Source: a virus. From it: DNA of 64,000 nucleotides. The translations under genes and the position numbers were made by a program. The notes under the pieces were generated by a model. The model made no database searches and was not told the origin of the DNA. It was given only the letters and a program-made list of their open reading frames with translations. Location of the stretch: positions 1-64,000 of IMG/VR virus record IMGVR_UViG_3300005529_000004. One strand, given 5' to 3'. Shown here one piece after another: positions 7,865 to 40,473 of the stretch. Positions within the stretch are counted from its first letter, which is position 1, and each line of letters starts with the position of its first letter.

Positions 7865-7867
7865 CTG

Positions 7868-7937: not shown

Positions 7938-8016
7938 CAGCGGCGTAGCATAATCGGCCTAATGCCCCTGGTCGTGAGCCAGGACGATGTCGGTTCGAAT
8001 CCGACCCCGCTGACCA
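7938..8016 (+). tRNA. Atypical tRNA, GTG (His) anticodon with C33 and encoded CCA
   Basis: Anticodon arm CCTGG-TCGTGAG-CCAGG; T-arm GTCGG-TTCGAAT-CCGAC; bulged acceptor CAGCGG(C)G/CCCGCTG followed by ACCA. Confidence 0.65.
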
Positions 8017-8017
8017 T

Positions 8018-8072
8018 TTTCACTGAATCGGCCATCTTCACAGCGACGGTGAAGATGGCCGATTCAGTGAAA
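8018..8072. terminator. Perfect 24-bp inverted repeat between convergent tRNA operons
   Basis: TTTCACTGAATCGGCCATCTTCAC-agcgacg-GTGAAGATGGCCGATTCAGTGAAA. Confidence 0.75.
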
Positions 8073-8073
8073 G

Positions 8074-8148
8074 TGCCGGGCCTGGGATTCGAACCCAGAA
8101 GCACTCGGGTCTGAGCCGAGTAGGTTTGCCAGTTTCCGTCAGCCCGGC
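8074..8148 (-). tRNA. tRNA-Leu(CAG) with a short variable arm
   Basis: Reverse complement GCCGGGC...CTCGG-CTCAGAC-CCGAG-TGCTT-CTGGG-TTCGAAT-CCCAG-GCCCGGC-A. Confidence 0.88.
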
Positions 8149-8155
8149 AGGACGA

Positions 8156-8226
8156 ATGACCTCCTGGGAGTCGAACCCAGCGCGCCACGGTTTGCAGCCG
8201 TGGTCCTCGCCGACCGGTCGAGGCCA
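8156..8226 (-). tRNA. tRNA-Cys(GCA)
   Basis: Reverse complement CCACGG-CTGCAAA-CCGTGG; T-arm CTGGG-TTCGACT-CCCAG; U73 discriminator; weak D-arm. Confidence 0.82.
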
Positions 8227-8227
8227 G

Positions 8228-8299
8228 TGGGCGCGGCTCCACTCGAAGGAGAACCTGCGGGGTTACGGCCCGGCGTGCTTCCTCTTACACCACGCGCCC
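8228..8299 (-). tRNA. Atypical tRNA, GTA (Tyr) anticodon with C33, no variable arm, C53:G61
   Basis: Reverse complement GGGCGCG-TG-GTGT..GCAC..CCGGG-CCGTAAC-CCCGC..CTCC-TTCGAGT-GGAG-C-CGCGCCC-A. Confidence 0.6.
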
Positions 8300-8404
8300 A
8301 AGACGGGAGGCCAGCCCGAAGGCTGGCTAGGCGAGGCGTAGATACAAACAGCGCCGCATCCGGTCCAGCTTACCGGGAAGACGCACTCCAGGCAAACTGC
8401 GTCG

Positions 8405-8414
8405 CCGGTAGACT
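8405..8414 (+). promoter_or_regulatory. CCGGTAGACT -10 promoter of the leaderless portal gene (representative of a recurrent motif)
   Basis: TAGACT at 8409-8414, 7 nt before ATG 8422, no SD. The same hexamer occurs at 3557, 14746(-), 36617, 40484, 42603, 44038, 47293, 51538, 52556 and 54567(-). Confidence 0.75.
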
Positions 8415-8421
8415 GGCAGTG

Positions 8422-10224
8422 ATGCCCGAGAAGACGACGCCGAAGCGCGCGACGCGCCGCCCTGCAGCATCCGCCGACAAGCCGCCGAACCTCGATGCGG
8501 CAGCGCAGGCCGTAGCGAAGGCCGTCCGCGAGGAGCCGGGGATCGGCCAGGGCCGCGTCATGAAGGTCCTGTACCTGGACGACCAGGGAAACCCGATCGG
8601 CGAGTGGGCCTCGCAGCAGCTCCCCGAAAACCCGTTCACGGGTCAGATGCAGGGACTGCAGGAGCCTCCCTTCCGCCTGGAACAGCTCGTCTACCTCGCC
8701 GAGAGCCACCCGGTTCACTCCGCCGCGCTGGAGCAGAAGACCGCCGACATCGTCGGTCGCGGCTGGGAGTGGGAGCCGGTGGATGAGCAGGAGGCGCCGG
8801 AGGAGCAGCGCGACGAGATGGCCGAGTGGTTCGAGAGCCTGGCGCCGGACGAGTTCGACATGCGCGAGGTGATCAACGCCGTCTGGCTCGACGTCGAGAC
8901 GACCGGCTGGGGCCTGTTCGAGGTGGCTCGCGATCCGTCCGGCGTGGCGCAGCGCATCTACCACGTCCCGGCGCATACCGTTCGCGCCCACCGCGCGGGC
9001 TTCAAGCTGGCGCAGATCAGGGACGCGCGCAAGGTCTGGTTCCGCCGCTGGGGAGCGGTCGAGGTGGACGGAGCGCCGGTCGAGGTGGACTCGCGGACCG
9101 GCAGCACGTCGAGCGTCAAGATTCCGGCCAACGACCTCTTCATCATCAAGCGCCCGGCGCGGCGCTCCACGTGGTACGGAATCCCCGGCTACGTGTCGTC
9201 GGTCGGCTGGATCGCGCTCGCACTCGCCGTCCGCGATGACAACCTGTTCTTCTTCGCCAACCGACGCGAGCCGCGCTGGGCGATCATCCTGAACAACATC
9301 GCCGACGACCCGAACCTGGAAGAGGACATTCGGCGCGCGTTCACGGTGGACCTGCGGCAGCCGCACCGGAACATCCTCATCCCGATCCAGGGCAACGGCA
9401 CGATCGAGTTCCAGCAGCTTTCGGGCAAGGCGCCACAGGAGGGCAGCTTCGAGAAGCTCGGCGACCGCGCCGACGCTGCGATCATGGTCTCGCACCGCGT
9501 TCCGGCGGAGCGCCTGGCGAACACGAAGACCGGACCGCTCGGCGGCAACGTCGCAGAGTGGGCGAACCGGGTCTACAAGGAGGGCGTGGTCGGGCCGGGC
9601 CAGGAGCTGCTGGCGTCGAGGCTCAACCGCTTCATCTCGGTCGAGTACGCGATTGCCACCGGCGCCAACGGCACGCGCCAGGCGAAGACGCAGAAGGCGA
9701 AGCTGAAGAAGGCACAGGCGTGGAAGCCCGCCTGGTTCATCCAGATGGACGATCTCGACATCGAGACCGACCGCGAGGAGCTGGACCTGGCCGTGATCGC
9801 TTTCCACGGAGACCTCATCACGCTGCGAGAGGCGCGCAACCGGCTGAAGCTCGGGCCGCTGATGGTCCCGAAGCAGGTGCCGATGGTAGACGAGCAGGGC
9901 AACCCGCTGCTCGACCCGGCCACGGGCGAGCCGATGGTCGGCCCGGATACTGGGACGATCGACCCGGCGACCGGCGACGTCATCGCGCCCGAGATGGTCG
10001 AGTCGCCGTACAACGACAAGCTCTTCACCGAGCTGCCGGGAGCCGCAGCGCAGGCCGGACAGCCCGGCGCCGTCCCGACTGGCTCCGGCGGGCTGCTGCA
10101 CAACGCTCGCGGCGATGGCCACGACCCGGCGATGGCGCTCCTCCTCGCGGAGACGCGCGAGTCGCTCGAAGCGTCGCGGAACATCGAGTCGCGAATCGCA
10201 GAGCTGGCTACGCGCGAGGAATGA
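8422..10224 (+). CDS. Portal protein (PBSX/HK97-type)
   Basis: HSAALEQKTADIVGRGW, DVETTGWGLFEVARD, HVPAHTVR, WYGIPGY, HRVPAE and TLREAR; lies between terL and MuF. Confidence 0.9.
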   Translation: MPEKTTPKRATRRPAASADKPPNLDAAAQAVAKAVREEPGIGQGRVMKVLYLDDQGNPIGEWASQQLPENPFTGQMQGLQEPPFRLEQLVYLAESHPVHSAALEQKTADIVGRGWEWEPVDEQEAPEEQRDEMAEWFESLAPDEFDMREVINAVWLDVETTGWGLFEVARDPSGVAQRIYHVPAHTVRAHRAGFKLAQIRDARKVWFRRWGAVEVDGAPVEVDSRTGSTSSVKIPANDLFIIKRPARRSTWYGIPGYVSSVGWIALALAVRDDNLFFFANRREPRWAIILNNIADDPNLEEDIRRAFTVDLRQPHRNILIPIQGNGTIEFQQLSGKAPQEGSFEKLGDRADAAIMVSHRVPAERLANTKTGPLGGNVAEWANRVYKEGVVGPGQELLASRLNRFISVEYAIATGANGTRQAKTQKAKLKKAQAWKPAWFIQMDDLDIETDREELDLAVIAFHGDLITLREARNRLKLGPLMVPKQVPMVDEQGNPLLDPATGEPMVGPDTGTIDPATGDVIAPEMVESPYNDKLFTELPGAAAQAGQPGAVPTGSGGLLHNARGDGHDPAMALLLAETRESLEASRNIESRIAELATREE

Positions 10225-13200
10225 ACCTCGCGGCTGCTCGCGAGCTGAACCGCGAGCACCACCGCATCCTTCGCCGTCGATTCGCCGTCGTCCAGAACGC
10301 AAGCCGCACGCACCGCACGCGGCAGGTGTCCGCCAAGCGGTACGCCACGCTCATCACACACGAGCGGGAGGTGTGGGGCGCTGGGCTGACGCGTATCTCG
10401 GACGACTTCCACTCGAAGCTCGACATCGACGCTGCGATCCAGTACTCCTACACGGAGCAGCGCCCCGGCGTCGTCAAGCGCCTGCTGCGTGCCATCCGCA
10501 AGGCCGACCCGAACCAGCCGCAGGACGGGACGCCGAACAGCCAGGAGGCGCGTGCTCGGCTGATGGCCCAGATCAACGAGGCATCGATGCTCGCCGGTGC
10601 GCTGCAGATGTACCTCGGGATGGCGATGCAGACTGACGCCGCCGCTGGGCAGATCAGCCTGGAGCATCTTGGCATCAACAAGACCTGGGCCTACGCGCAT
10701 CCGCAGAACATGGCGAACGCGCTCTACGCCGTGCGTGGGTCGAAGGTCATCCAGAACCTCTACGGCGACCACGTCGATCGCCTGACCCAGATCATCAACG
10801 AGGCCTGCGACCCACGCCACCCGTGGACGATTCAGCAGGTTCGTCAGAAGATCGCCGCCGAGTGGCCGCAGCTCCAGGCATACCAGGTGGACCGGATCGC
10901 ACGCACGGAGACGGCAGCGGTGTGGACGGCTACGTCGATGAACGCCTACGCCGCGAACGGCATCTCCGGCTGGACGTCCTCAATCGCCACCGGGCCGAGC
11001 ATCGGCATCGACAGCGAGGACCCCTGCGACGAGTGCGTGGAGGCTGCGGAGATGGTCCACACGATGGACGACGACATTCCGCCCTGGCATCCGAACTGCC
11101 GCTGCGAGGCGATCCCCGAGCTGACCGATCCCGAGACCGGGGACGAGTGGCTGCCGCCGGACGAGCCGTTCAATGGCGGAGGACCGGTCACGGTCGAGGG
11201 CACTCCTGCAGCCGACGAGTATGGGCCGCAGACGCAGGGGCCGATCCTGTCGCCGATGCCGGAGCCTGGCGCCCGCTACGCGTCCGGGCCGGGTAGCACG
11301 CTCTCGTCGTCGCCACGCAAGCTGCCGGATGGCTCGCGGGCTGCTGGATACGTGCCGACTTCGACACTCGTGGATGACCTCCGCGCTCAGCTCACGTCCA
11401 CGAACAACCGCATCTCGGGACTGAAGACCCGGCTGAAGAACCTGGACGAGTCGGACGCGCGCTATGCCGAGGTACAGGCGCGGCTGGAGAGCGAGTTTAA
11501 GAAGCGTCAAGAGCTGAAGGACCGGATCGCCGGGAAGACGCCGCCGGTCGAGCGTCCGCTGCCTCCCGAGCGCCCCGGCATTAAGACGGGACGGTCGCCG
11601 GAGGGCAGGCTCCGTAACTTCAAGGCGATGTCCGACGAGAAGCTCAAGGACGTCTGGGATCGCGTCGAGCACGAGGCGAACGATCCCGAGGCTGTCGCTG
11701 CGCTGCGTGCGGAGGGCAAGGCTCGCGGCCTGGATGATCCCTGGGGAGAAACGCCGCCTCCGCCTCCGCCTCCGCCTCCGCCTCCGCCTCCGCCTCCGCC
11801 TCCGCCGATCGAGCCGGTCACGATCGGCGACGACTGGAACGAGACGAAGTTCAACGCCGCGCTCGATCCGCTGGACGGCAACACCGTCCGCATCACGTAT
11901 CAGGGCGGTGGCCAGGTCGAGGGACAGCTCGTCAGGAGCGGGCCGTACTGGACGATCGACGGAGGAACACTCGGCAACGGTCTGGGCGTCGCGAAGATCG
12001 AGATGCGCGGGCCGGATGGCATCTGGCGCTCCGTCGCCGAGAAGCCGCCCGAGCCTGTGCTGCCACCCGAGCCGGACATGACGGCCGACGAGATTCGCGC
12101 CAAGATCACGACCCAGAACAACAAGATCAGCGGACTCAAGACGCGGATCAAGCGCCTGGAGTCGAACGGCGACCGGGACGGGAAGCTGCCCGAGGTGCGG
12201 CAGCGGCTGGCCGACGAGATCGCCGAGCGCGACCGGCTCAAGGGGCTGCTGGAGAAGGCTCCTCCGGCGCCGCGACCGGTCGTCCCGCCAGCGCCGGTGC
12301 CCGTGGCCGTGCCCGCGATGGGCGGCGACCTGTACCAGGCGACGATGGCTGTCCGCAGGCAGCTCATGGACCTGCATCAGGTCACGATCGATGACGCCGG
12401 ACTCGACAGCGTCATCGACCTCGGCACGAGGATTGACGACGCGATCCGCGACGCGATGCCAAAGGACGTCCAGTACGCCTTCGAGGATGCCCAGTCCGCC
12501 TACAACAAGGCCCTCGACGTCCGCGAGGAGACTATGGCGCCGATTGAGGCCGAGTACCGCGCCTCGCAGCAGCAGCTCAGCGCGCTCCATGACGCGACTA
12601 CCCTGCGGCTGTCAAACGGCAAGTACACCCGGTTCCGTGACGTGAGCATGTATCAGGAGCCAGAGCTGCGTCGGGCGATCCTCCACGACCCGGCTGTGGT
12701 GGAGCTGACCGACAAGACCACGGAGCTGAGCAGCGCGTTCTTCCGGCGCTCCCAGGATGAGTGGGCGAAGGTCAACGAGTACAAGGCGAAGGTCGATGCC
12801 ATCGAGGTGGACTACGTGAAGGCGCGACGGCAGGCCATCAAGGACGTCATGTCCCAGATCAGGGACATGGGCAGCGGCGCGGGCGTCCGCGTGAGGTTCG
12901 GGCACTTCCTCCGTGACTCGAAGTCTCGCGAGAGGATTGAGAAGCTGCTCACGAAGGCCCAGGAATACCTGCCCCGTGACTGGATCAGGGACATGCGTGA
13001 GATCGACGCCGGGTCAGCCCGGCGTGGCTACCACCGCAACCAGGGATCGTGGGCAGAGATCAAGGTCTCGAACAGCGACTCGCGGATCGCGGGTGACGGC
13101 AAGGGCCTCTCGACCGCGCTGCACGAGCTGGGGCACGAAGTGGAGGACATGAACTCGCTGGTCGTCCGCCTGGAACGTGCCTACTATCAGCGCCGGACTG

Positions 13201-13415
13201 AGGGCGAAGTGCTCAAGGGCGCTCCAGGCTATGGGCGTGACGAACGCTTCCGCGAGGACAAGTTCAGCGACATCTACATGGGAAAGTACTACGACGGCCG
13301 CAACTACGAGCTGCTGACGATGGGCCTGGAGTCGCTGTTCGAGACGGCGGGTCGCCGGAAGCTCATGGACCTGGATATGCGCCGGTGGCTGCTCGGCGTG
13401 CTGGCTGTCGGCTAG
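10221..13415 (+). CDS. MuF (SPP1 gp7-like) minor head protein with a long C-terminal extension and HExxH metallopeptidase-like domain
   Basis: RIARTE, CDEC and PPWHPNCRC give the MuF signature; poly-Pro linker; C-terminal TALHELGHEVE...YELLTMGLE. Confidence 0.85.
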   Translation: MNLAAARELNREHHRILRRRFAVVQNASRTHRTRQVSAKRYATLITHEREVWGAGLTRISDDFHSKLDIDAAIQYSYTEQRPGVVKRLLRAIRKADPNQPQDGTPNSQEARARLMAQINEASMLAGALQMYLGMAMQTDAAAGQISLEHLGINKTWAYAHPQNMANALYAVRGSKVIQNLYGDHVDRLTQIINEACDPRHPWTIQQVRQKIAAEWPQLQAYQVDRIARTETAAVWTATSMNAYAANGISGWTSSIATGPSIGIDSEDPCDECVEAAEMVHTMDDDIPPWHPNCRCEAIPELTDPETGDEWLPPDEPFNGGGPVTVEGTPAADEYGPQTQGPILSPMPEPGARYASGPGSTLSSSPRKLPDGSRAAGYVPTSTLVDDLRAQLTSTNNRISGLKTRLKNLDESDARYAEVQARLESEFKKRQELKDRIAGKTPPVERPLPPERPGIKTGRSPEGRLRNFKAMSDEKLKDVWDRVEHEANDPEAVAALRAEGKARGLDDPWGETPPPPPPPPPPPPPPPPPPIEPVTIGDDWNETKFNAALDPLDGNTVRITYQGGGQVEGQLVRSGPYWTIDGGTLGNGLGVAKIEMRGPDGIWRSVAEKPPEPVLPPEPDMTADEIRAKITTQNNKISGLKTRIKRLESNGDRDGKLPEVRQRLADEIAERDRLKGLLEKAPPAPRPVVPPAPVPVAVPAMGGDLYQATMAVRRQLMDLHQVTIDDAGLDSVIDLGTRIDDAIRDAMPKDVQYAFEDAQSAYNKALDVREETMAPIEAEYRASQQQLSALHDATTLRLSNGKYTRFRDVSMYQEPELRRAILHDPAVVELTDKTTELSSAFFRRSQDEWAKVNEYKAKVDAIEVDYVKARRQAIKDVMSQIRDMGSGAGVRVRFGHFLRDSKSRERIEKLLTKAQEYLPRDWIRDMREIDAGSARRGYHRNQGSWAEIKVSNSDSRIAGDGKGLSTALHELGHEVEDMNSLVVRLERAYYQRRTEGEVLKGAPGYGRDERFREDKFSDIYMGKYYDGRNYELLTMGLESLFETAGRRKLMDLDMRRWLLGVLAVG
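11753..11807 (+). repeat. (CCGCCT)n hexamer microsatellite encoding about 18 prolines
   Basis: About 9 perfect CCGCCT units, in frame within MuF. Confidence 0.9.
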
Positions 13416-13708: not shown

Positions 13709-13713
13709 CAGGA

Positions 13714-14445: not shown

Positions 14446-14495
14446 ACCCGGATTATCGGGCAGGGCACGACGGATTGTATCCCTCGAACGGGTAG
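14436..14495 (-). repeat. Promoter cassette copy 1 (diverged)
   Basis: Reverse complement CTACCCGTTCGAGGGATacaaTCCGTCgTgCCcTgccCGATAATCCGGGTATGGAGACCA; matches copies at 29995 and 56359. Confidence 0.85.
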
Positions 14496-14498
14496 AGT

Positions 14499-25977: not shown

Positions 25978-27845
25978 GCCGCCTCCTTCTCCAGCCACGG
26001 CGCCGGGGCCGTGGGAATATATGCCGGGTAGTCGTCCCGGTAGTGCTCGCCCCAGCGCGAGACGATGTCGCTGTCGATCTCCAGGGTCACGCCGGGCCAG
26101 TCGTCGCGGTCGGGCATGATCCGCTCCACGATGTCGCGGGCCGCAGCCGCGTGCTCGTTCGGCACCTCGAAGATCAGCTCGTCGTGGACCGAGAGCCGGA
26201 AGAACTCGCCCAGCTCGCCGCAGAGCTGGACCATCTTCTTCTTCATCGTCACGGCGCAACCGCCCTGGATGCGGTAGTTGACGCCGACGTACGCCTTCTG
26301 CAGCTCGACCGGCAGGCGCCTTCCGTCCTGGAGCCTAATCCAGCCCCACTTCCCATCGCCCGCACGATCGCGCACCTGCTGCGTGACGGCCTGCATGAAC
26401 GTGGCGACGCCGGGATAGAGCTGGTCGTAGCTGGTCAGGAACTGCTGCGCCGCCTCGACCGTGATCTTGGCGGTGGCCGCGAACTTCTCCAGCCCGGCGC
26501 CGTAGATCTTCGCGAAGCCTGCGTTCTTGCAGACGGTGCGCTGCGGCTTCGTGAAGCCCTCGCCGTAGAGCGCGAGCGCGGTGGCATCGTGAATGTCGCC
26601 GCCGCTGTTGAAGACGTCCAGCATCCGCTGCTCACGCGCCAGGCTTGCCAGCGCGCGCATCTCCATCCCGCTGAAGTCCGCCATCACGAAGCAGTGGTCA
26701 TCGTGCGGGATGATCGCGTCCCGGACGACCCGGCCGCGCGGGAGCTGCTGGAGCGGTGGATTAGCGACGCTCATGCGCCCCGTGCGCGCCTCCACGGGCC
26801 TCGTGCTGGCGTGGATGATCCCGTGGACGGCTGCGCCCCGCCCGGCCTGCTCGCCGAAGCCGTAGGGGTTCACAGGGCCGAGCTTGTAGAGGTAGTTGTC
26901 GAGCAGCCGCCGCGCGGTGCGCCAGCGGCGGACGATGCCCGCGACCGGGTAGCCGTGCTCGGCCAGCATGTCGAGCACGTCCTTGTCCACCGACAGGTTG
27001 CCCTTCTCGGTGAAGACCGCCCAGACCGCTCCCTGGGCGTGAAGCATGTCGATGATCTGGCGGTCGCTCGCCGGATTCTCGGCGGGAATCTGCGCGCGCA
27101 GCACGGCCGCGTCCTGCTCCAGTTTCTCGATGCACTGCTGACGGTAGGTCTCGTCAATAAGCAGGCCCGCGATCTCGGCCTCGCGCAGGCAGTGGATGAC
27201 GGCCATCTCCAGCTCGTAGGCTTCGCGGTAGGACGAGTGGACGGTGCCGAACACCTTGTCGGCCAGCATCGACGTCAGGCAGGTGTCGAGCGCGGAGTAT
27301 GTCCAGTAGGCCGGGACGTCGGTCGGGACCGTCGCCCAGGTCCAGCCGTGCTGCTGCATCGTCTGCCGGAGCAGGCCCTGCCCGATCTGCGCGCGACGGT
27401 CTACGTACATCGTGGCGAGGCCCTTCAGGTCCATCCGCGCGCTCGGGTCGAGCAAGTGGCCCATGACCATCGTGTCGTGTGCCAGGCGCTGCGGGATGTC
27501 GATTCCGTCCTGCTTCAGCATCCGCGAGTCGAAGAGGAGGTTGTGCGCGACCATCGGGCGGTCGTAGCCTTCGATTACTTCCTTGACGACGCCGCGCCAG
27601 TCCTTGTAGTCGATCGCCCAGCCGTGACGCGAATCGCCGAACTGCACCAGCCGGATGTAGTCGTGGCCGACGTTGAGGCCGGTGGTTTCAATGTCCACTG
27701 CGAGAAAGTCGCGCCGTTCGCCGAGCCACTGCTTGAGCGCATCGATGTCCTCCGATCGGTCGAGTCGGTGGAGCTGCAGGTCGCCCAGCCCGCCGCCTGC
27801 TGCGGGCCGGACGTCCTGCGCGTTGAGCTGCTGAGAGTCGTCCAC
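25974..27845 (-). CDS. DNA polymerase, family A (3'-5' exonuclease plus polymerase)
   Basis: DIETTGL, HNLLFD, RTGRMS..PPLQQLP, ADFSGMEMR, KNAGFAKIYG, NYRIQG and VHDE. Confidence 0.95.
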   Translation of the reverse strand: MDDSQQLNAQDVRPAAGGGLGDLQLHRLDRSEDIDALKQWLGERRDFLAVDIETTGLNVGHDYIRLVQFGDSRHGWAIDYKDWRGVVKEVIEGYDRPMVAHNLLFDSRMLKQDGIDIPQRLAHDTMVMGHLLDPSARMDLKGLATMYVDRRAQIGQGLLRQTMQQHGWTWATVPTDVPAYWTYSALDTCLTSMLADKVFGTVHSSYREAYELEMAVIHCLREAEIAGLLIDETYRQQCIEKLEQDAAVLRAQIPAENPASDRQIIDMLHAQGAVWAVFTEKGNLSVDKDVLDMLAEHGYPVAGIVRRWRTARRLLDNYLYKLGPVNPYGFGEQAGRGAAVHGIIHASTRPVEARTGRMSVANPPLQQLPRGRVVRDAIIPHDDHCFVMADFSGMEMRALASLAREQRMLDVFNSGGDIHDATALALYGEGFTKPQRTVCKNAGFAKIYGAGLEKFAATAKITVEAAQQFLTSYDQLYPGVATFMQAVTQQVRDRAGDGKWGWIRLQDGRRLPVELQKAYVGVNYRIQGGCAVTMKKKMVQLCGELGEFFRLSVHDELIFEVPNEHAAAARDIVERIMPDRDDWPGVTLEIDSDIVSRWGEHYRDDYPAYIPTAPAPWLEKEAA

Positions 27846-28585
27846 TACGAGGGCAGGTCGTGGCCCTTCAGCTTGAACATGACCCGGTGCCCACGGAAGT
27901 CGAACAGGTACGGGTCGGTCCGAGCGATGACTCCCTCGGGCACGGCGTTGCCGGTGCCCTCGGCGGCCGAGACGTCGCTGGTCAGCATCGACCGCACCAG
28001 CTCCTCCACCTCGGCGGTGGACGCATCGACCGCGAGCACGGGCGCCGTGTCGATGTCGAGCTGCGCCGCGACGGTCACGACGTCGTCCCAGGTCCTCCAC
28101 AGAGGCTTGGAGTACTCGTCCCCGTTCGTGACCCGGAAGGTCGCGACGTCGAACGCGCGGAAGCTCTTGTGGCTGGCGTAGTCGCCTCCGCCCTTCTGGA
28201 TGCCAGGTCCGTAGCCCTCGCCGAACACGATCATGGCCAGCTCGCCGATGCCCGATCCGTCTCCGTCGCCGGTGATGTCCGACAGACCGGAGGCGAGCTT
28301 GTTGGCCAGGCTGTCCTGCGACCAGTACGGGCTGCCGTCGTCTCCGAACGCGGAGTCCGCGAAGTCGCCCGGCAGGTTGGCCTTGTCGGTGCGGCCGCGA
28401 ATGTCCACGTGCGGGTAGCCGTTGTCCCAGGTCAGGATCAGCCGGATGTTCATGCCGTCGATCTTCTCGGTCACGTGCCAGCGATCGACCTGCAGGAAGT
28501 CGGGCCGCTTCGCGACACCGACGACCAGCTTGTGCGTCTCGTCGTCGCGGACGTAGAGGTTCTCGATCGACGGGTAGCTGAGCAT
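27845..28585 (-). CDS. ATP-dependent RNA ligase (Rnl2/Rnl5-like nucleotidyltransferase only)
   Basis: EKIDGMN (motif I), FGEGYG, AFDV, EGVI and FKLK. Confidence 0.8.
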   Translation of the reverse strand: MLSYPSIENLYVRDDETHKLVVGVAKRPDFLQVDRWHVTEKIDGMNIRLILTWDNGYPHVDIRGRTDKANLPGDFADSAFGDDGSPYWSQDSLANKLASGLSDITGDGDGSGIGELAMIVFGEGYGPGIQKGGGDYASHKSFRAFDVATFRVTNGDEYSKPLWRTWDDVVTVAAQLDIDTAPVLAVDASTAEVEELVRSMLTSDVSAAEGTGNAVPEGVIARTDPYLFDFRGHRVMFKLKGHDLPS

Positions 28586-28704
28586 CAGCCCGCCTCCACC
28601 AGGATCGACACCACGCACGCCACGATGCCGAGGATGACTCCGGCGTTGCCGAAGCCGGTGAACGCGGCAACCGTGAACGGCACGAGGAAGATTGCAAACA
28701 GCAT
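28585..28704 (-). CDS. Small hydrophobic protein
   Basis: GGAGG SD; two short hydrophobic stretches. Confidence 0.5.
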   Translation of the reverse strand: MLFAIFLVPFTVAAFTGFGNAGVILGIVACVVSILVEAG

Positions 28705-28772
28705 GTCCCACCTCCCCAACCTAGACTTTGAACTACCTCCCGCGCCGAACATTACCACGAGGGCAGGAAGAG

Positions 28773-30168: not shown

Positions 30169-30966
30169 TCAAGTCTCGGACGAGCTTAGCAGCTCCCGGA
30201 GACGGCGCAATGCTTCCCGCTGCCACGCCTGCACGGTGGTCGTGCTCTTGCCCACGTGCGCGGCGATCTCGCCCAGGCTCAGCGGCGGCTGGCCGTCGAA
30301 TCCGAAGCGCAGCCGGACGATCTCGCCCAGCTCCGGTGGAAGGTCGAGCAGGGCCGCGCGAAGATGCGTCGCGTCCCAGTGTCCCTCGCTCGGGTCGTCG
30401 GCGTGCGGGTCGGCGACCGTGTCCAGCAGGCTCTGGGAGTAGTCGTCATCGAGGTAGACCTCGCGGTTGAGGCTCGTCACGACCTCGGCTGCTTCGAGCG
30501 CGCGCCGAATCTCCTCCGGCTCGGCGTCCAGGTCCTTCGCGAGCTGCTCGATCGTCTTGTGCGGCTCGGCTGCGAGCGCGCCGCGCGCCTTCGCGCGATG
30601 CTCGGCGACCTGGGGAGGCAGACGGATCGTGGCCGCGTTCGCCGACAGGCCGGTGAGAATGTACTTGCGGACCCAGAGCGTGGCGTAGGTCGTGAAGCGG
30701 AAGCCCAGCTCCGGGTCAAACTTGCGCGTGGCGTGGTCGAGACCCAGCACGCCGTCCTGGACGATGTCCTCGTAGTCGCCGCGATGCCTGTAGCCGCGAG
30801 CGATGCTGAGCACGAGGCGCATATTGCACCGGATCAGCTCATGGCGCGCGCTCTCGTCTCCCCGCCCTGCTCGCCGCGCCAGGTCGCGCTCCTCCTTCGC
30901 GGTTAGCAGGCGGTGGTTGGCGGCGGAATCGAGGAACCGCTGGTGGCCCTCGTCCGTCGTTCTCAT
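30169..30966 (-). CDS. Phage sigma-70 family factor (group 1/2-like)
   Basis: Region 1.2 LLTAKEERDLARR; region 2 NMRLVLSIAR..FDPELGFRFTTYAT; region 4 LRFG..SLGEIA..EALRRLR. Confidence 0.92.
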   Translation of the reverse strand: MRTTDEGHQRFLDSAANHRLLTAKEERDLARRAGRGDESARHELIRCNMRLVLSIARGYRHRGDYEDIVQDGVLGLDHATRKFDPELGFRFTTYATLWVRKYILTGLSANAATIRLPPQVAEHRAKARGALAAEPHKTIEQLAKDLDAEPEEIRRALEAAEVVTSLNREVYLDDDYSQSLLDTVADPHADDPSEGHWDATHLRAALLDLPPELGEIVRLRFGFDGQPPLSLGEIAAHVGKSTTTVQAWQREALRRLRELLSSSET

Positions 30967-34837: not shown

Positions 34838-34842
34838 CTCCC

Positions 34843-35116
34843 GAATGATGCCGGTTCGTCGTTCCGCGCGGGCCTCCTACTCGCGCCCACGCAGCTTACC
34901 TCGTCATTCCACGGGCCGCTCATCGTTCCACGTCATTCCGTACAGCGGAATGATGAGGCCTCAAACCCGCATCGCTCCGCCACATTCTCCCCTTACTCGT
35001 CATTCCATCACTTCAGAGTAGAAGTAGGTACGTGTACGAGGCGCGGAGTGAAACGGGCGGAGACCCACGATTCTGTCAGGGGAGTGGGTCTCCACCGTTC
35101 GAATGACGGAATGACG
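34843..35116. repeat. Iteron-like CGTCATTCC boxes (candidate origin or operator array)
   Basis: CGTCATTCC at 34902, 34931 and 34998; inverted GGAATGA(C/T)G at 34947 and 35108; GAATGACG at 35101; internal IR GGAGACCCAC/GTGGGTCTCC. Confidence 0.7.
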
Positions 35117-35124
35117 ATTCCGGG

Positions 35125-36543
35125 TCACTCGCCGAGCGGTCCAGGGCTGAAGTCGTGGCCCTCCTCGGGCTGCGCCTCGGCCTGCTCGCCGTAGCCCGCC
35201 TGCTCCCGCTCCGCCCGGTAGCGCGGGTAGCGCTGGCGGATGACGTCGGCGTAGCGCGGGTCCAGCTCGACCACGAACGCGCGCCGATCGGTCAGGTCGG
35301 CCGCGATCAGGGTGGAGCCGCTGCCCGCGAACGGGTCGAAGACCACGTCGCCTGGCACCGAGCTGTTCTCGATCGCCTGCGTGATCAGCTCGACGGGCTT
35401 CATGGTCGGATGCTCGCGGCTCGCACTTGGCGCGTCCACCTCGATGACCGAGGTGCAGTTGTCCGGGCCGAACCACCGCGTCGGAACCTCGCCGGAACGG
35501 TTTGCCGCGCTGTTCTCCATCTGGCTGATGCGGCCGGTCCGACGTCCAGGCGTGTAACCGTAGTAGACCGCTTCATGCCGCAGGTGGTAGTCCGAGTGCC
35601 CGAGGATCATCCGCTGCTTGACCCAGACGAGCATCTGGAAGTAGCGCCACGGCGTCTCCAGGTTCTCGAACGAGGTAATGAAGACGCCGCCGTTGCGATC
35701 GGTCGGGCCTGCGACGTAGAACGGCGCCGACTCCTGCATGATCGTCGCGCAGGCAGTCCAGGCATCGCGCAGCAAGGCACGCAGGCCAGCCTGGTCGCGG
35801 GCGTCGTTCTGGATCGTCATCGCGTTGCCCTCGACCTTGCCGACGTAGTCCACGCCGTAGGGCGGGTCGGTCCACATCATCGTGGCCTTGCCGCCTTCAC
35901 CGAGCATCGCCTCGATGCCGGTCTTCAGCGCGTCGGCGTTCGTGGCATCGCCGCAGAACAGCAGGTGCCGCATCGGGTCCTCGGCCGGGCCGATCCAGTG
36001 GAACGAGTTGGGCGGAGTCTCGGGCGTCTCCGGCAGCTCGGGCGCGTCGTTCGTGCCGGGGATGCTGGACTCGATCCGCGACTCCATGTCCTGGAGCGAC
36101 CAGCCATGCTCGGCTGCCTGGCCCAGCCAGTACTCCGCCTTCTCCGCTCCGTAGCGTCGGACACGGCTGAAGTGCGAGAAGCTGACGCCGGGATGTCCTT
36201 CGAACCGCGTCATGTGCCGAGCGCGCTGCTCGTGCGGGAAGAACGCCGACACCGCCGCGTAGACCTTGACCGTCTTCTGGTCGAGGCCACCGATCGGGCT
36301 GGGCCGGTCGATCCACTCCCGGTACTCGCGCGGGAAGTGCGCCTTGTAGAAGTTCGCGATGTCGCCGATCGCGAAGCACGTCGCGTCGGTGATGGCGCCG
36401 AGACCTTCCGCGAGGCTCAGCAGCTCCTGCTCGGATGCACCGGGCGCGAGCTGCAGACCAACCGTCGTCATGCGGGCGTGCTCGGAGAGCGCGACTCCCT
36501 GCCCGCCGAAGACGGCAATCTCAGTGCTGCTCAAGTATCCCAC
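35125..36543 (-). CDS. DNA N6/N4 methyltransferase with an LmbU-like N-terminal domain
   Basis: TDPPY, HPTMKP and DPFAGSGST; N-terminal AIGD..SFSHF..WL.QA..HGWS. Confidence 0.88.
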   Translation of the reverse strand: MGYLSSTEIAVFGGQGVALSEHARMTTVGLQLAPGASEQELLSLAEGLGAITDATCFAIGDIANFYKAHFPREYREWIDRPSPIGGLDQKTVKVYAAVSAFFPHEQRARHMTRFEGHPGVSFSHFSRVRRYGAEKAEYWLGQAAEHGWSLQDMESRIESSIPGTNDAPELPETPETPPNSFHWIGPAEDPMRHLLFCGDATNADALKTGIEAMLGEGGKATMMWTDPPYGVDYVGKVEGNAMTIQNDARDQAGLRALLRDAWTACATIMQESAPFYVAGPTDRNGGVFITSFENLETPWRYFQMLVWVKQRMILGHSDYHLRHEAVYYGYTPGRRTGRISQMENSAANRSGEVPTRWFGPDNCTSVIEVDAPSASREHPTMKPVELITQAIENSSVPGDVVFDPFAGSGSTLIAADLTDRRAFVVELDPRYADVIRQRYPRYRAEREQAGYGEQAEAQPEEGHDFSPGPLGE

Positions 36544-36629
36544 CTCCTTCTATGACTCCCGCATTGTACGCGAACCGCGCCGTCTCCGCGAGCGGGGCTG
36601 CGCGTTCTCTGGCCGGTAGACTCGAACCC

Positions 36630-38096
36630 ATGAAGCCAGACGATCTCTCCGGCGTCTACCTCGTGGAGGACGGCGACGCTGCCGCTTTCTCGTGGGGACC
36701 GGACGGCGCGCGGCACTCGTTCCGTGGCGTCGAGGACGGCGAGCGCGCACTCCGCAAGGCTGTCGCGCACGGGCTGGCGGTCGAGGAGATCGCGAAGATG
36801 TCCGAGTTCGAGCGCGCGGTAGCCCGTGAGCTGTCGGTCGGCGTCGGCGTCCGCAAGGACACCTCGGGCGCCGTGATCATCGGCTACTTCCCCTTCGACG
36901 GCAACGGCGACGAGGACGATGCCTTCGCCAGCCAGCTCTCGCAGCTCGGCTCCGGCTCCGTCGCCGCGACCGACATCCACCTGACCCTGCTCTACCTCGG
37001 CGAGCCGGACCCCGCCTGGGACCTGGACCTGATCGCCGCGTGCGTCAAGATCGCTTGCTGCACCGCGATGCCGATCAAGGGCTGCGTCTCCGGCCTCGGC
37101 CGCTTCGTCGGTCCCGAGGATCAGGACGTCATCGTCGCGCTCGTGGACGTCCCCGAGCTGGGACGGCTGCGTCACCAGATCAAGGACCAGCTCCTCTGCT
37201 ACGGCGCGCTGCCCTACACAGCGCAGTGCTTTCAGGAGGAGCACGGTTACCTGCCTCACTTCACGATCGCGTACGTCTCCAAGAGTGCAGCATCGCCGTC
37301 GCCGCTGACCGAGGTCGTGCCCTTCACGCTCGATTCCCTGGCGCTGGCTGCCGGGCCGAAGCGTGTGCAGTTCGACTTCTCCGGCGGCTACGACGTCGCG
37401 ACGAGCGATCCTGCACCGTACTACGCCGCGCGCCTGCAGAAGGAAGGGCGCGTGCTGCGCCAGGAGCACCTGGAGTGGATGGAGGACTCGATCGCGCGCA
37501 TGCAGGAGATCGTGGACAGGGAGCGCCGTCGCAAGAAGCCCGGCAACCCCGAGTCGAAGGAAGACGACTCCACCGGCGACGCCGCAGCGACGGGTGGCAG
37601 CGCCGCCCAGATGTCGCGCGACGCCGATGGCACCGAGGACCTGGCCTACACCGTCACGAAGGCGCTGGAGGAGGAGCGGTTCACGCTCGGCCCGCTCTAT
37701 GCGCCGGAGCGCAAGGACGCGCATGGCGAGTGGACCGACGCCGCGACGCTGCAGAAGGCTGTCTGGTCCTTCGTGGAAGAAAGTGCTGCAAATGGGCGAC
37801 TTCTGAACCTGCAGCACGGCGATCACGGCACGCAGACGGTCGGCGAGTGGGTCGAGGTCATGGCCTGGCCCTACGAGCACACGATCAAGGTCGCCACGGC
37901 TGGCGGCGAGGAGCGCGAGCTGGAGATGCCTGCGGGCACCGTCTACCTCGGCGCCAAGTGGTCGCCGGAGGCGTGGAAGCTCGTCAAGGCCGGGAAGCTC
38001 AACGGCTGGTCGCTCGGCGGCTCGGCTGTCCGTGTTGCCACCGAGGGCGACCTGCCGATGATGGGCGATGCCAAGATTCCGGCGGCGGTACGCTAA
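36630..38096 (+). CDS. 2H phosphoesterase (Acb1/LigT-like) fused to an XkdF-type prohead protease
   Basis: Two H-x-T motifs (HLTLLYLG, PHFTIAY); C-terminal DAHGEW..NLQH..AWKLVKAGKLNGWSLGG; leaderless start after GGTAGACT. Confidence 0.82.
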   Translation: MKPDDLSGVYLVEDGDAAAFSWGPDGARHSFRGVEDGERALRKAVAHGLAVEEIAKMSEFERAVARELSVGVGVRKDTSGAVIIGYFPFDGNGDEDDAFASQLSQLGSGSVAATDIHLTLLYLGEPDPAWDLDLIAACVKIACCTAMPIKGCVSGLGRFVGPEDQDVIVALVDVPELGRLRHQIKDQLLCYGALPYTAQCFQEEHGYLPHFTIAYVSKSAASPSPLTEVVPFTLDSLALAAGPKRVQFDFSGGYDVATSDPAPYYAARLQKEGRVLRQEHLEWMEDSIARMQEIVDRERRRKKPGNPESKEDDSTGDAAATGGSAAQMSRDADGTEDLAYTVTKALEEERFTLGPLYAPERKDAHGEWTDAATLQKAVWSFVEESAANGRLLNLQHGDHGTQTVGEWVEVMAWPYEHTIKVATAGGEERELEMPAGTVYLGAKWSPEAWKLVKAGKLNGWSLGGSAVRVATEGDLPMMGDAKIPAAVR

Positions 38097-38101
38097 GCAC
38101 C

Positions 38102-38950
38102 ATGAGCGATCTCACCGAGGCAACGCGCAAGGCGTACCAGCTCCGTGACCCGCAGGAGGCGATGGAGATCGTCCACCGCACGGGTCCCGTGAGCGGCTTC
38201 GGGCTGCACGCCGACCTGACCGACACGGTCAGGGCGCAGGCGGAGCTGCACCGCATCTTCGGTACCGGCGGAGCGCTGCAGAAGGGAGTCTCGGACATCC
38301 GGGCGCTCTGGCTGTCTTCGCTCGCCTCGTCTTACTCGCTCCTGAACGACGCGCAGGCTGGCGCGATCGTCAGTGCCTGGAAGCAGGCATTCGGCGAGGA
38401 CCTGGACGCGCTGCCGCCTGATCAGGTCTACAAGGGCAACGGGCGCAACGTCGGCGACTCCGCGTCGCTGCTCGGCGTCCTGATGGAGGTCGTGACGAAG
38501 GCGTCTGACTCCTCGAAGCCCTACGGCAACGTCACCTACGCCGACCCCGGCTGGCAGAAGGACGGGAAGGCGCGCTACCCGCTCGACAGCGAGCAGCACA
38601 TCCGCGCCGCCTGGAGCTACATCAACCAGGCGAAGAACGCCGCGCTCTACACCGCCGCGCAGCTCGGCAAGATCAAGGCGAAGATCAAGGCAGCCATGCA
38701 GAAGATCGGCGCCGACGTCGCTGGCAAGTCCGGCGCTGGCGACGACGGCACGGCGCAGACCTCGGCATCCGGCAAGCCGGACGATCCGAAGGACCCGAAG
38801 CTCAAGACTCCGGCTGCAGTCGGGCTGCTCGCGAAGGCGAAGGCGAAGGGCGAGCCGCACGAGTACGACGGCGGCAAGGACGGAACCGGCCCTTGCACCT
38901 CCTGCGGCATGTCCAAGAGCGACGGCAACCACCTCCCCGAACCGAGTTAG
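38102..38950 (+). CDS. Head-associated protein with a DUF6582-like domain
   Basis: YADPGWQKDGKARYPLDSEQHIRAAWSYINQ. Confidence 0.7.
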   Translation: MSDLTEATRKAYQLRDPQEAMEIVHRTGPVSGFGLHADLTDTVRAQAELHRIFGTGGALQKGVSDIRALWLSSLASSYSLLNDAQAGAIVSAWKQAFGEDLDALPPDQVYKGNGRNVGDSASLLGVLMEVVTKASDSSKPYGNVTYADPGWQKDGKARYPLDSEQHIRAAWSYINQAKNAALYTAAQLGKIKAKIKAAMQKIGADVAGKSGAGDDGTAQTSASGKPDDPKDPKLKTPAAVGLLAKAKAKGEPHEYDGGKDGTGPCTSCGMSKSDGNHLPEPS

Positions 38951-38953
38951 CCC

Positions 38954-39316
38954 GTGGCGACCACGCCCGGCAACGGCAGCGGCGACCGCGTCGAGCTGAC
39001 GCGCGTCTCGATGTCGGTGGAGGTACTTCGCCAGGAGGTGCGCGCGGCCAACGCCGAGACGCGCGATGAGCTGAAGACCTACATCGACACGAAGCTGCAG
39101 CCGATCCTCGACAAGCAGGCGGCGGTGGATCGTGGCGACTTCACGATGGCGGCGACTCGCGCGATCAAGGCGCTGATCGCCAAGAGCTTCTCGCAGCGCG
39201 CCGCTGCAGGCTTCTCCGCCCGCGAGCGCAAGATCGCGCTGCTCGGGCTGTGCGCGGCGATGATCTCGATGGGCGCAGCCGTGTACGTCTCGATCCACGC
39301 AGCGCTGGGAGGGTGA
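38954..39316 (+). CDS. Membrane-anchored coiled-coil protein
   Basis: C-terminal TM helix. Confidence 0.65.
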   Translation: MATTPGNGSGDRVELTRVSMSVEVLRQEVRAANAETRDELKTYIDTKLQPILDKQAAVDRGDFTMAATRAIKALIAKSFSQRAAAGFSARERKIALLGLCAAMISMGAAVYVSIHAALGG

Positions 39317-39753
39317 GCACGATGAAGACACCGGAGCACTTCGAGGACGTCACCGACACCTTCCTCGGCATGACGAAGGTGAAGCTCGTCGGAGTCGTCG
39401 CCTTCCTCTCGATCGTCACCGCCGCGATCTCCACCGTCTCGCTCGGCTACGCCGTCAGCGCCAACCACCGCGCGGTCGAGTCGCAGAAGGCAGCGGTCGT
39501 GGAGGGCCACAAGGTCATCTGCGTGCTGATCCGCTCATCGCTGCAGACGTCGAAGAACCGCGTCTCGGCAGCGCAGTCCGCGAAGGACCTGAACGCGCTC
39601 GCCGACCAGCTCCCGAAGGGCAGCGTCGCTCAGCGCGCGGTGTACGACGTCGCGTCGCAGTTCGCAGTCTCGGGCAAGGGCGCCAAGAGCGGCGAGGCTG
39701 CGTTCTTCGCCGAGCTGCACAAGATCGGCTGCAACGTCAAGCCTCCCGCATGA
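39313..39753 (+). CDS. Membrane protein
   Basis: N-terminal TM helix; two Cys; GTGA overlap. Confidence 0.65.
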   Translation: MSTMKTPEHFEDVTDTFLGMTKVKLVGVVAFLSIVTAAISTVSLGYAVSANHRAVESQKAAVVEGHKVICVLIRSSLQTSKNRVSAAQSAKDLNALADQLPKGSVAQRAVYDVASQFAVSGKGAKSGEAAFFAELHKIGCNVKPPA

Positions 39754-40175
39754 CCGTCGAGGATCGCGAGCAGGCGATCTTCGGGTCGTTCGATGGTCTC
39801 ACGACTGGCATCGGCATCATCGCGGCGCTAATCCTCGCTGGGCACAGCAAGGCGGTGGTCGTCGGCGTCATGGGCGCGGCGGTCGCAGCGGCTGTCGGCA
39901 TGGGCGCGGGCAAGTGGCTGTCCACACCCGATCGCAACTACGGCACGGCTGGCGTCATGTTCATCGCCACGCTGATCGGCGGCGCAGCGCCGGGCATCCC
40001 GTTCACGTTCCTGCCGCTGCACTGGGCAGTCGCGGCTACGAGCCTCATCGCGGTCGGCGTCGCGCTGCAGATCGGCTGGTTCCGTGGCGCAGGGATTCGC
40101 GGCTACGTCGAGACGGCCGTCGTGCTCGTGCTGGTCACCGTGCTGACGGTGGCCACCGGCGCTGGCCTCGGCTAG
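39750..40175 (+). CDS. VIT1/CCC1-family Fe/Mn transporter (minimal)
   Basis: IFGSFDGL, GMGAGKWLS, GG..P.IPF; about 5 TM helices. Confidence 0.75.
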   Translation: MTVEDREQAIFGSFDGLTTGIGIIAALILAGHSKAVVVGVMGAAVAAAVGMGAGKWLSTPDRNYGTAGVMFIATLIGGAAPGIPFTFLPLHWAVAATSLIAVGVALQIGWFRGAGIRGYVETAVVLVLVTVLTVATGAGLG

Positions 40176-40329
40176 AATCCGGCCATGCGCTGTGAGTAGG
40201 CGGGTGGGCACCGCCGAGGGGCAGCGAGCAATGCGGTGGGTAGATTCTGCGACCGGGCTGCAGCCCGCCACCCGGCGGGACGAGGGAGCTGCCAAGCTCC
40301 GCATCTCGTCGGGTGAGGCCCGGAGACAA

Positions 40330-40401
40330 GGGCCGGTAGCTCAGGCGGTAGAGCTGCCGGGTGAAATCCGGCGCGCGCAGGTTCGATCCCTGCCCGGCCC
40401 A
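40330..40401 (+). tRNA. tRNA-Phe(GAA)
   Basis: GGGCCGG-TAGCTCAG..GCCGG-GTGAAAT-CCGGC..GGTTCGATCC..CCGGCCC-A. Confidence 0.9.
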
Positions 40402-40473
40402 TCGGCTGTAGCTCAGCGGAAGAGCACCGGGCGGCGAACCCGGAGGCCGCAGGTTCGAGTCCTGCCAGCCGAA
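40402..40473 (+). tRNA. Atypical tRNA, GCG (Arg) anticodon with G33
   Basis: TCGGCTG-TAGCTCAG..CCGGG-CGGCGAA-CCCGG..GGTTCGAGTCC..CAGCCGA-A. Confidence 0.7.

Follow-up and report, generated by a model that had tools for sequence, protein, structure and literature searches.

Uridine at position 33 (U33), which forms the U-turn that presents the anticodon, is near-universal in tRNAs and is treated as invariant in elongator tRNAs. Here we describe three tRNA genes that lack it in the DNA of a soil virus, namely positions 1 to 64,000 of the IMG/VR record IMGVR_UViG_3300005529_000004 (the window, which denotes this whole stretch of 64,000 nucleotides (nt)). One is a tRNA-Arg(GCG) with G at position 33; the other two, which we call His-like and Tyr-like after their GUG and GUA anticodons, have C at that position.

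Exceptions to U33 are known from eukaryotic initiator tRNAs, which have C33, and from the Candida tRNA-Ser(CAG), which has G33 (PMC5041475). The Candida tRNA decodes with medium efficiency, below that of a U33 version, and its G33 lowers recognition by leucyl-tRNA synthetase (PMC1991585). Among the enzymes that act on this loop, PrrC cleaves 3' to U33, a cut that T4 Pnk and Rnl1 repair, and RloC cuts at the PrrC site and at a second site one base beyond it (PMC2610378). A Cas13b is reported to cleave after uridines in anticodon loops, taking GpU out of His(GUG) and Asp(GUC) and U33 out of Val(GAC) (preprint of October 2026, PMC13692257). In minihelices colicin E5 requires a pyrimidine before GU, with A or G at that place nearly abolishing cleavage, and TGT requires UGU in the loop (PMC1635277). 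Also close to the present case is the proposal by van den Berg et al. (2023, eLife) that phage tRNAs differing in the anticodon loop escape anticodon nucleases; the supplement to that paper includes C33 in Val(GAC) (loop UCGACAC, 144/161) and Val(CAC) (loop UCCACAC, 142/161) of C1 mycobacteriophages, and one His variant with the loop UCGUGAU (PMC10264068). Our literature search found no paper that treats the loss of U33 in phage tRNAs as such.

We called tRNA genes with ARAGORN on the window and on the whole genome, and with Infernal against the Rfam model RF00005 (gathering score 29 bits). ARAGORN called 10 tRNA genes, three of which have a seven-nucleotide anticodon loop without T at position 33 (Table 1). 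These three loops had been picked out by a sequence-only reading of the window, and both programs bear it out: the ARAGORN and Infernal alignments alike place C, C and G at position 33 of the His-like, Tyr-like and Arg genes, and all three genes exceed the gathering score, each matching model positions 1-71. They lie in non-coding DNA, with the portal coding signal (G+C at third codon positions (GC3) of 0.88) beginning at about 8419 and the open reading frame (ORF) that follows the Arg tRNA beginning at 40498. The contigs of two soil-metagenome DNA runs differ from 7550-8450 in no letter, and both runs contain every sampled word of 39500-41500; because this DNA may itself come from one of them, they are not independent support and count only against an error in the consensus. 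Most economically, the three are taken as genuine phage tRNA genes, derived from tRNAs of the host lineage.

The sequence-only reading had further described the three tRNAs as otherwise intact, with bodies that mismatch their anticodons. For the Arg tRNA the first half of that description holds and the second does not. All 21 of its 21 stem pairs are Watson-Crick, its minimum-free-energy fold is the cloverleaf, and its conserved core is complete (U8, A14, G18-G19, A20, A21, G53:C61, T54-T55-C56 and A58). Work in E. coli has defined arginine identity by A20, C35, G36 or U36, and A or G at position 73. The phage gene has A20 (in the D loop AGCGGAA), C35, G36 and A73, together with similarity to cellular Arg tRNAs, and as judged from its sequence it is Arg in both body and anticodon.

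To place this tRNA among cellular ones we used as a host-like reference one Solirubrobacterales metagenome-assembled genome (MAG) of 4.6 Mb (G005), which has 46 RF00005 matches and 45 ARAGORN tRNAs, and aligned the phage tRNAs to these 45 with the seven loop bases removed, a crude stand-in for isotype models. The best loop-masked match of the Arg tRNA is Arg(UCG). A 25-base stretch, which begins at the last acceptor base, spans the D arm and ends at position 32, recurs exactly at 13 loci in one-per-species bacterial genomes. Twelve of these are in Actinomycetota MAGs, whose titles name Solirubrobacterales (seven) and Solirubrobacteraceae, Thermoleophilia, Gaiellaceae, Actinomycetes and Actinomycetota (one each), and one is in a Myxococcales MAG. 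ARAGORN reads the 13 loci as eight Arg(UCG) with U33, two Arg(UCG) with C33, one Arg(CCU) and two Arg-type bodies with a CCACCAR loop; position 33 is U in nine, C in four and G in none. Among 251 genomes sampled from the class concerned, 24 places in 22 genomes match the Arg tRNA at E <=1e-10. Twenty-two are Arg tRNAs (10 ACG, 11 UCU and 1 UCG) and two are Trp tRNAs, and neither G33 nor a GCG anticodon is found in any of them. The loops of the 22 are CUACGAA, CUACGGA or CUUCUAA, except for one CCUCGAA, and the T arm of the phage tRNA is identical to that of several tRNAs of the class, including Arg(ACG). Set against the cellular loops CUACGAA and CUUCGAA, the phage loop differs at positions 33 and 34 only, and it contains no U anywhere. 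By this comparison the G33-G34 state is derived relative to its cellular relatives. Since the rest of the molecule is flawless, the change points to a tRNA that is being maintained and not to one in decay, and selection on the Arg tRNA is likely.

The two loci with a CCACCAR loop (L428 and L429, both in Solirubrobacterales MAGs) have Arg-type bodies whose 31 5' bases are as in Arg(UCG), an altered 3' stem strand, and loops (CCACCAG and CCACCAA) that read as 'Gly(ACC)' with C33; L428 and an Arg(UCG) variant (L435) lie on one contig. They may be paralogues with remodelled anticodon loops.

The His-like gene has C1:G72, A73 and an encoded CCA, and is preceded by a G; its A73 had been pointed out from the sequence and is confirmed. 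It cannot be called intact, since a C.C mismatch (7:66) or a bulged C lies at the foot of its acceptor stem with an extra linker base. A three-base linker is common to the His-like, Gln and Pro tRNAs of the phage, and apart from the 7:66 defect the conserved core is complete. When the molecule is folded with RNAfold, U32 pairs with G38, leaving a loop of 5 nt. The supposed mismatch between body and anticodon is confined in this gene to the acceptor end. Its anticodon stem (CCUGG/CCAGG) is that of the tRNA-His of G005, and a BLAST search of phage records returned tRNA-His, aligned over bases 7-68 of the gene, in 14 of the 16 matches that cover at least half of the query. The acceptor end departs from the bacterial tRNA-His pattern of G-1, G1:C72 and C73. 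Tested against the host order (41 genomes searched, 40 matched, 30 loci examined), all 30 His tRNAs have G1:C72, an end CAC followed by C73, and the loop UUGUGGU, from which the phage loop differs at positions 33, 37 and 38. The His genes of other phages begin with GUG in five of five cases, with C73 in four and A73 in one.

Two claims made from the sequence about the Tyr-like gene, that it lacks a long variable arm and that it carries C53:G61, proved correct. The gene is 73 nt long, a class-I length, with a variable loop of 4 nt and A73; besides the flipped C53:G61 there are mismatched bases at 27:43 and at 49:65, and the fold of minimum free energy is something other than a cloverleaf, so that the gene too falls short of being intact. 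Bacterial tRNA-Tyr is a class-II molecule with a long variable arm and A73, of which this gene has the A73 only. The Tyr tRNA of G005 is 82 nt long, and four of four phage Tyr tRNAs are 82-88 nt long. BLAST against the phage collection found no relative of the Tyr-like gene, and among the host-like tRNAs Val(CAC) and Met match it best once the loop is masked; here the body does mismatch the anticodon.

To judge how unusual these loops are, we assembled a phage baseline from the tRNA regions of nine records (three IMG/VR phages, Cece, DSL-LC01, phiCbK, Tonenili, Annadreamy and Sixama). Of 237 ARAGORN calls, nine (3.8%) have a base other than T at position 33, and in all nine it is C; G34 is present in 6/9 of these C33 tRNAs versus 78/228 (Fisher p = 0.053). 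An earlier and more redundant phage sample gave 10/149. The frequency in the window, 3/10, exceeds both that of the phage baseline (Fisher p = 0.009, post hoc) and that of G005, in which 2/45 tRNAs lack U33 (Fisher p = 0.037, likewise post hoc). The two in G005 are Val(GAC) and Arg(UCG), both with C33; its His and Tyr tRNAs both have U33. C33 is also kept in the Val(GAC) tRNAs of five related 131-kb phages whose stems differ. G33, by comparison, occurs in 0/237 phage tRNAs, 0/45 host-like tRNAs and 0/37 related cellular tRNA loci. C33 is therefore ordinary in phages and in the tRNAs of the likely host, and the G33 Arg tRNA is the rare and new element.

We also searched IMG/VR for similar loops. 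The 15-mer of the Arg anticodon arm is found at at least 119 loci, none of them in an ARAGORN tRNA among the matches listed, and the His arm with N at position 33 at none. The loop CGGCGAA before a T loop occurs at at least 117 loci with seven tRNA calls, and among the matches listed there is no in-register G33 Arg(GCG). The pattern CGTGR before a T loop, found at at least 120 loci with 89 tRNA calls, yielded two more C33 His(GUG) genes (L249 and L293); the matches listed for it also include five unvetted ARAGORN G33 calls (two 'Ser uga', two 'Pro ugg' and one undetermined), for which the pattern itself selects. Together with a gene of 58.3 bits in G002, His(GUG) genes with C33 are thus found on three unrelated viral contigs. 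The G002 gene (L181:677-751), from an unrelated phage of 125 kb, has C33 (loop CCGUGGA), A73, an encoded CCA and G-1, and these four traits are also those of the His-like gene in the window.

The parent record is a complete virus of 89,259 bp with direct terminal repeats and 67.7% G+C, of which the window is the first 64 kb. The window encodes terminase, portal, capsid and tail genes, a replication module, a sigma-70 factor and RNA-end enzymes. Megablast of 7000-9500 against 50,697 phage records gave no match, and all tblastn matches of TerL in phage records have <=27% identity, with no close relative among them. The TerL search of IMG/VR found one relative (locus L001 of record G001) and the alignment of TerL to metagenome contigs another (locus L140), each 46% identical; a search of IMG/VR with the DNA polymerase found no relative. 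The helicase shares 36-41% identity with the helicases of phages of Actinomycetia, Microbacterium, Micrococcus and Gordonia, and Streptomyces phages account for 127/230 of the capsid matches. Judging by tRNA identity and protein similarity rather than from an isolate, the host is probably a Thermoleophilia or Solirubrobacterales-like actinobacterium. We also considered an alpha-proteobacterial host as an explanation for A73 in the His-like gene, since A73 occurs in the tRNA-His of alpha-proteobacteria, and dropped it because the helicase and capsid point to actinophages and the tRNA matches to Actinomycetota. The sigma-70 family factor (30169-30966, minus strand) has regions 1.2, 2, 3 and 4. 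Beyond the window, at 71356-75097 of the genome, an amidoligase, a glutamine amidotransferase and an ATP-dependent DNA ligase stand in a row adjoining sugar-nucleotide and glycosyltransferase genes, and are possibly a DNA or surface modification module.

Four genes for RNA-end enzymes are encoded in the window (Table 1). The Pnk and Rnl1 genes are separated by 1 kb and follow the Arg tRNA downstream at a distance of about 4-6 kb; their P-loop, DxDxT and KxDG motifs, together with their linkage, identify them as a predicted healing and sealing pair of the T4 type. The earlier suggestion of a link to anticodon nucleases is strengthened by this pair and by the two further RNA-end enzymes. Relatives of the Rnl1 in IMG/VR (12 loci) belong to other phage types and were used only as a tRNA baseline. 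Four such enzymes in one 89-kb phage make an unusually full tRNA or RNA repair kit.

Codon usage was counted in 69 ORFs (20,123 codons), a set chosen by GC3. CGC makes up 781 of 1,543 Arg codons (0.51), and the corresponding fractions are 0.86 for CAC, 0.92 for TAC, 0.96 for AAC and 0.97 for CAG, so that the phage tRNAs read the commonest codons of the phage. This fits the replacement of attacked host tRNAs and not the supply of tRNAs for rare codons. The other tRNAs of the phage provide a further point of comparison. The acceptor stem, G73 and following CC of the Gln tRNA are those of Gln(CUG) in G005, and the first pair and discriminator agree with G005 in Gln (U1:A72, G73), Pro (C1:G72, A73), Asn (G73) and Cys (U73). 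In the loop-masked alignment the best match is the tRNA's own isotype in 5/10 cases (Gln, His (weakly), Leu, Arg and Met) and another isotype for Tyr, Asn, Phe and Cys; Pro is a near tie, with Gln(CUG) slightly above Tyr and two Pro tRNAs. With these discriminators, first pairs and own-isotype matches, the tRNA set looks selected for charging.

Table 1. Coordinates of the tRNA genes, RNA-end enzymes and associated elements in the window
Feature	Position	Strand	Evidence and remarks
tRNA-Arg(GCG), G33, loop CGGCGAA	40402..40473	+	ARAGORN; RF00005 65.8 bits
His(GUG)-like tRNA, C33, loop UCGUGAG	7938..8016	+	ARAGORN; RF00005 40.6 bits
Tyr(GUA)-like tRNA, C33, loop CCGUAAC	8227..8299	-	ARAGORN; RF00005 41.0 bits, seen only with laxer Infernal filters, on 7500-8450
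tRNAs Gln(CUG), Pro(UGG), Asn(GUU), all U33	7631..7865	+	ARAGORN; Gln 43.4 bits, Asn 73.8 bits
tRNAs Leu(CAG), Cys(GCA), both U33	8073..8226	-	ARAGORN; Leu 44.5 bits
tRNA-Phe(GAA), U33	40330..40401	+	ARAGORN; 57.0 bits; no spacer before the Arg tRNA
tRNA-Met, U33	62588-62662		ARAGORN; 68.8 bits
27-nt inverted repeat, 96% complementary, 7-nt loop	8015..8075	.	separates the convergent tRNA groups
Promoter-like site TGGCCA, 17-nt spacer, TAGAAT	40150..40178	+	upstream of Phe-Arg; consensus match only
T4 Rnl1-type RNA ligase, KLDG motif	44144..45238	+	phrog_562 240.9 bits; PF09511
T4-type Pnk kinase-phosphatase, GIPGSGKT and DLDGT motifs	46240..47238	+	phrog_505 298.7 bits; PF25109 160.7 bits; AAA_33
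2H phosphoesterase (2'-5' RNA ligase superfamily) fused to XkdF-like domain	36435..38096	+	profile matches
Second RNA ligase, PF09414 type	27845..28711	-	profile match

The Pro and Cys tRNAs score below the RF00005 cut-off. The Leu and Cys genes are convergent with the plus-strand tRNA group, and the inverted repeat between the two groups extends into both, covering the CCA end of the His-like gene on one side and the 3' end of the Leu gene on the other. It may serve as a two-way terminator or as a processing hairpin; lacking a T run, it does not have the form of a classic terminator, and our terminator scan did not call it. Simple terminator and promoter scans of 7300-8700 called nothing. The promoter-like site ahead of the Phe and Arg genes was found once, against a mean of 0.0 in shuffles.

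Two further observations concern this tRNA group. Between the Asn and His-like genes, at 7866-7933 on the plus strand, there is an eleventh tRNA-shaped gene that ARAGORN missed. It has an acceptor stem of 7 bp (two of them G.U), a minimal D arm (CCUC-UGG-GAGG), a normal T arm, discriminator G, and the loop CUCCAAC, which is a Trp CCA anticodon with U33; it scores 17.8 bits only, to the tRNA-Sec model. The tRNA-Leu(CAG) (8073-8148, minus strand) is 76 nt long, without a long variable arm and with A73, and with the loop masked it matches Leu(UAA) best among the host-like tRNAs. Three Leu tRNAs of 74-76 nt are annotated in Gordonia phage Sixama, and short Leu tRNAs are thus recurrent in actinophages.

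The reading that we put forward, tentatively and at somewhat less than an even chance, is that the three tRNAs as a set are working spares, in which the loss of U33 removes the uridine beside which anticodon nucleases cut. The phage would carry spare decoders for its own most-used codons, and in three of them the uridine before the anticodon would have been replaced, taking away both the cut site of HEPN-type nucleases (PrrC, RloC and Cas13) and a requirement of TGT and other readers of the loop. An Arg-type body would have been retargeted by a change at positions 33-34 only, from U-N to G-G, to give a tRNA that would read CGC directly, with no need for deamination of A34, and that would present a U-free loop. 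The altered tRNAs and the healing and sealing by Pnk and Rnl1 would together keep translation running while the host attacks its own tRNAs. The genes and their loops, the derived state of these against cellular relatives, the repair genes and the fit to codon usage are observed; expression, charging, decoding and nuclease resistance are properties that we infer for these tRNAs, and the literature and the repair genes of the phage suggest that the Arg loop may escape U-directed nucleases. A narrower version, which we consider unlikely, is that the G33-G34 Arg tRNA is a decoder with a uridine-free loop that evolved against U-specific HEPN nucleases (PrrC, RloC and Cas13-type). There would then be no cutting and no tRNA-derived signalling nucleotides, and phages at large would lose U33 from their tRNAs as a counter-defence added to Pnk-Rnl1 repair, a corollary that we hold to be just as doubtful. 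If true, this would be the first elongator tRNA of a bacterial virus to work with a purine at the U-turn position.

Several observations weigh against the reading of all three as protected spares, and most of them concern the C33 genes. C33 is a normal variant that needs no special explanation. The cellular Val(GAC) tRNA of the order to which G005 belongs has C33 (loop UCGACAA) in 29/29 genomes examined (41/41 genomes matched; of the 30 best loci, one that belongs to an unpublished genome was set aside), and the Val(GAC) tRNA of this Solirubrobacterales-type order is in this respect a fixed exception, within bacteria, to the 'invariant' U33. In a genome of 68% GC, moreover, U-to-C is the direction that GC pressure favours, and C33 needs no special explanation on that ground either. 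The proposal, made from the sequence, that repeated change at one position reflects selection is consequently upheld in part: non-U33 loops are enriched and the Arg body is flawless, but C33 is not an invention of the phage. The enrichment itself was measured in a window that had been picked for this feature. Both C33 tRNAs may go uncharged, the His-like one for want of the G1:C72 and C73 present in 30/30 His tRNAs of the host order, and the Tyr-like one for want of a long variable arm, with two mismatches and a fold other than the cloverleaf. The two TerL relatives have no counterpart of these tRNAs: L001 has no tRNA beside its terminase gene or in the whole of record G001, and L140 has none beside its terminase gene in the 8.3 kb searched. 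No RNA runs with sequence of this phage are listed among public runs. We know of no tRNA-cutting nuclease in the presumed host. Finally, evasion of colicin E5 by C33, as the sequence-only reading would have allowed, is contradicted by the minihelix data, in which substrates with C for U at the U33-equivalent place remained fully susceptible and only those with a purine there did not (PMC1635277). The case for the two C33 genes is thus weaker than that for the Arg tRNA, because the ribosomes of the likely host tolerate C33, the change is GC-favoured, it gives no protection from colicin E5, the one nuclease tested at this position, and charging elements of the host type are lacking. These two genes may be hardened spares, queuosine-free decoders, non-decoding look-alikes or decaying copies.

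A serious possibility, nearly as likely as the reading above though one we would stop short of calling probable, is that no selection by defence systems was involved at all: U33-to-C would be a tolerated, nearly neutral and GC-favoured change accompanied by partial decay of the His-like and Tyr-like genes, and G33 a by-product of anticodon retargeting. The Val(GAC) tRNAs of the host order, the 2/10 cellular Arg(UCG) tRNAs with C33 among the 13 loci, the 3.8% of phage tRNAs and the 67.7% GC of the genome all fit such tolerance, as do the additional defects of the His-like and Tyr-like genes, which lack host-type identity elements and have the lowest scores (40.6 and 41.0 bits) among those above threshold. 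What this account handles poorly is the Arg tRNA, which is otherwise undamaged yet carries a transversion at the most conserved position of the loop, absent from the 237, 45 and 37 tRNAs compared. The Gln, Leu, Pro and Cys tRNAs, which also score low in this phage, moreover retain U33 and coherent identity elements, and non-U33 loops are enriched here. A different benefit, avoidance of queuosine, would apply to the C33 genes: C33 removes the U33-G34-U35 that TGT needs, and the His and Tyr tRNAs would keep a plain G34 favouring C-ending codons. Both C33 tRNAs are indeed GUN decoders, a TGT-family gene is present in 5/5 host-like genomes (and absent from the phage), and the phage prefers CAC and TAC. 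We nevertheless think this improbable, since the Asn(GUU) tRNA of the phage keeps U33, the G33 of the Arg tRNA is left unexplained, C33 in other phages is mostly in tRNAs without queuosine (Val, Ile, Ala, Leu and Met), and the benefit is speculative.

The remaining accounts deny that the genes decode as their anticodons suggest, or that they exist. The sequence-only reading had raised both decoys and swapped identities, and we found no evidence for either. Non-decoding look-alikes (the His-like and Tyr-like genes, possibly also the Arg gene) could act as decoys or inhibitors of tRNA nucleases or tRNA-binding proteins, or as signals for RNase P or RNase Z. The His-like and Tyr-like genes do keep a tRNA fold and T loop without host-type aminoacylation elements, and an additional tRNA-shaped element with a minimal D arm stands beside them; but nothing points to binding or inhibition, the Arg tRNA has the full Arg identity set, and a decoy would hardly need anticodons that match the top codons of the phage, so that we regard this as quite improbable. 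Recoding tRNAs, in which the body of one amino-acid type bears another anticodon as in the Candida Ser tRNA(CAG), would agree with the Val(CAC) and Met matches of the Tyr-like body and with the acceptor end of the His-like gene, and G33 accompanies the one known natural swap (PMC5041475, PMC1991585). The sole G33 tRNA here, however, is Arg in body and anticodon, the usage of His and Tyr codons in the phage shows nothing odd, and misincorporation at 2.6-2.7% of codons would be very costly; this is a very improbable explanation. An artefact is hardly credible. The record is a metagenome assembly and ARAGORN gives false positives, but two programs agree on the loops, the three sites are separate and each within an intergenic tRNA cluster, and the two soil runs (both of which may be the source) agree with the sequence as described above.

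If the G33 Arg tRNA works, then the actinobacterial translation machinery tolerates a purine at the position of U33. The cellular loops CUACGAA and CUUCGAA and the phage loop CGGCGAA, carried on the same stem, form a natural minimal substrate pair that would show what nucleases, TGT and TadA read. C33, for its part, does not set phages apart in this lineage, since it is present in the tRNA-Val(GAC) of the likely hosts themselves, and counts of C33 in phage genomes need a host baseline before they are called counter-defence.

Among known systems, the tRNAs treated by van den Berg et al. are similar in that they are phage tRNAs which duplicate host anticodons and differ from the host in the loop. 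The same kind of difference is found here, at positions 33, 37 and 38 of the His-like tRNA and at 33-34 of the Arg tRNA, given the inferred host. That paper leaves position 33 undiscussed, mentioning neither 'position 33' nor 'U-turn', and reports no purine there, and the C33 of Val(GAC) is in the host clade studied here the cellular state and not a phage change. Cellular Val(GAC) tRNAs and the eukaryotic initiators (PMC5041475), which are working tRNAs, resemble our C33 genes in having C at 33. They differ in being other isoacceptors; the His tRNAs of the host clade have U33 in 30/30 cases, as do both His and Tyr in G005. The Candida tRNA-Ser(CAG) is the one well-known natural elongator tRNA with G33. 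It is eukaryotic and joins a Ser body to a Leu anticodon, whereas the phage tRNA is Arg throughout and belongs to a setting of conflict between phage and host. With regard to Cas13b6, C33 or G33 removes one of its two cut sites and the Arg loop offers no U at all, although that work concerns E. coli tRNAs and the Cas13 of another organism, and U35 stays in the His-like and Tyr-like loops. The T4 response to PrrC is similar in that both Pnk and Rnl1 are encoded here, close together and with intact motifs, and in that PrrC cuts at the very position changed in these tRNAs. T4 mends the tRNA-Lys of its host; the present phage has no Lys tRNA, and what we propose for it is an altered phage tRNA besides repair.

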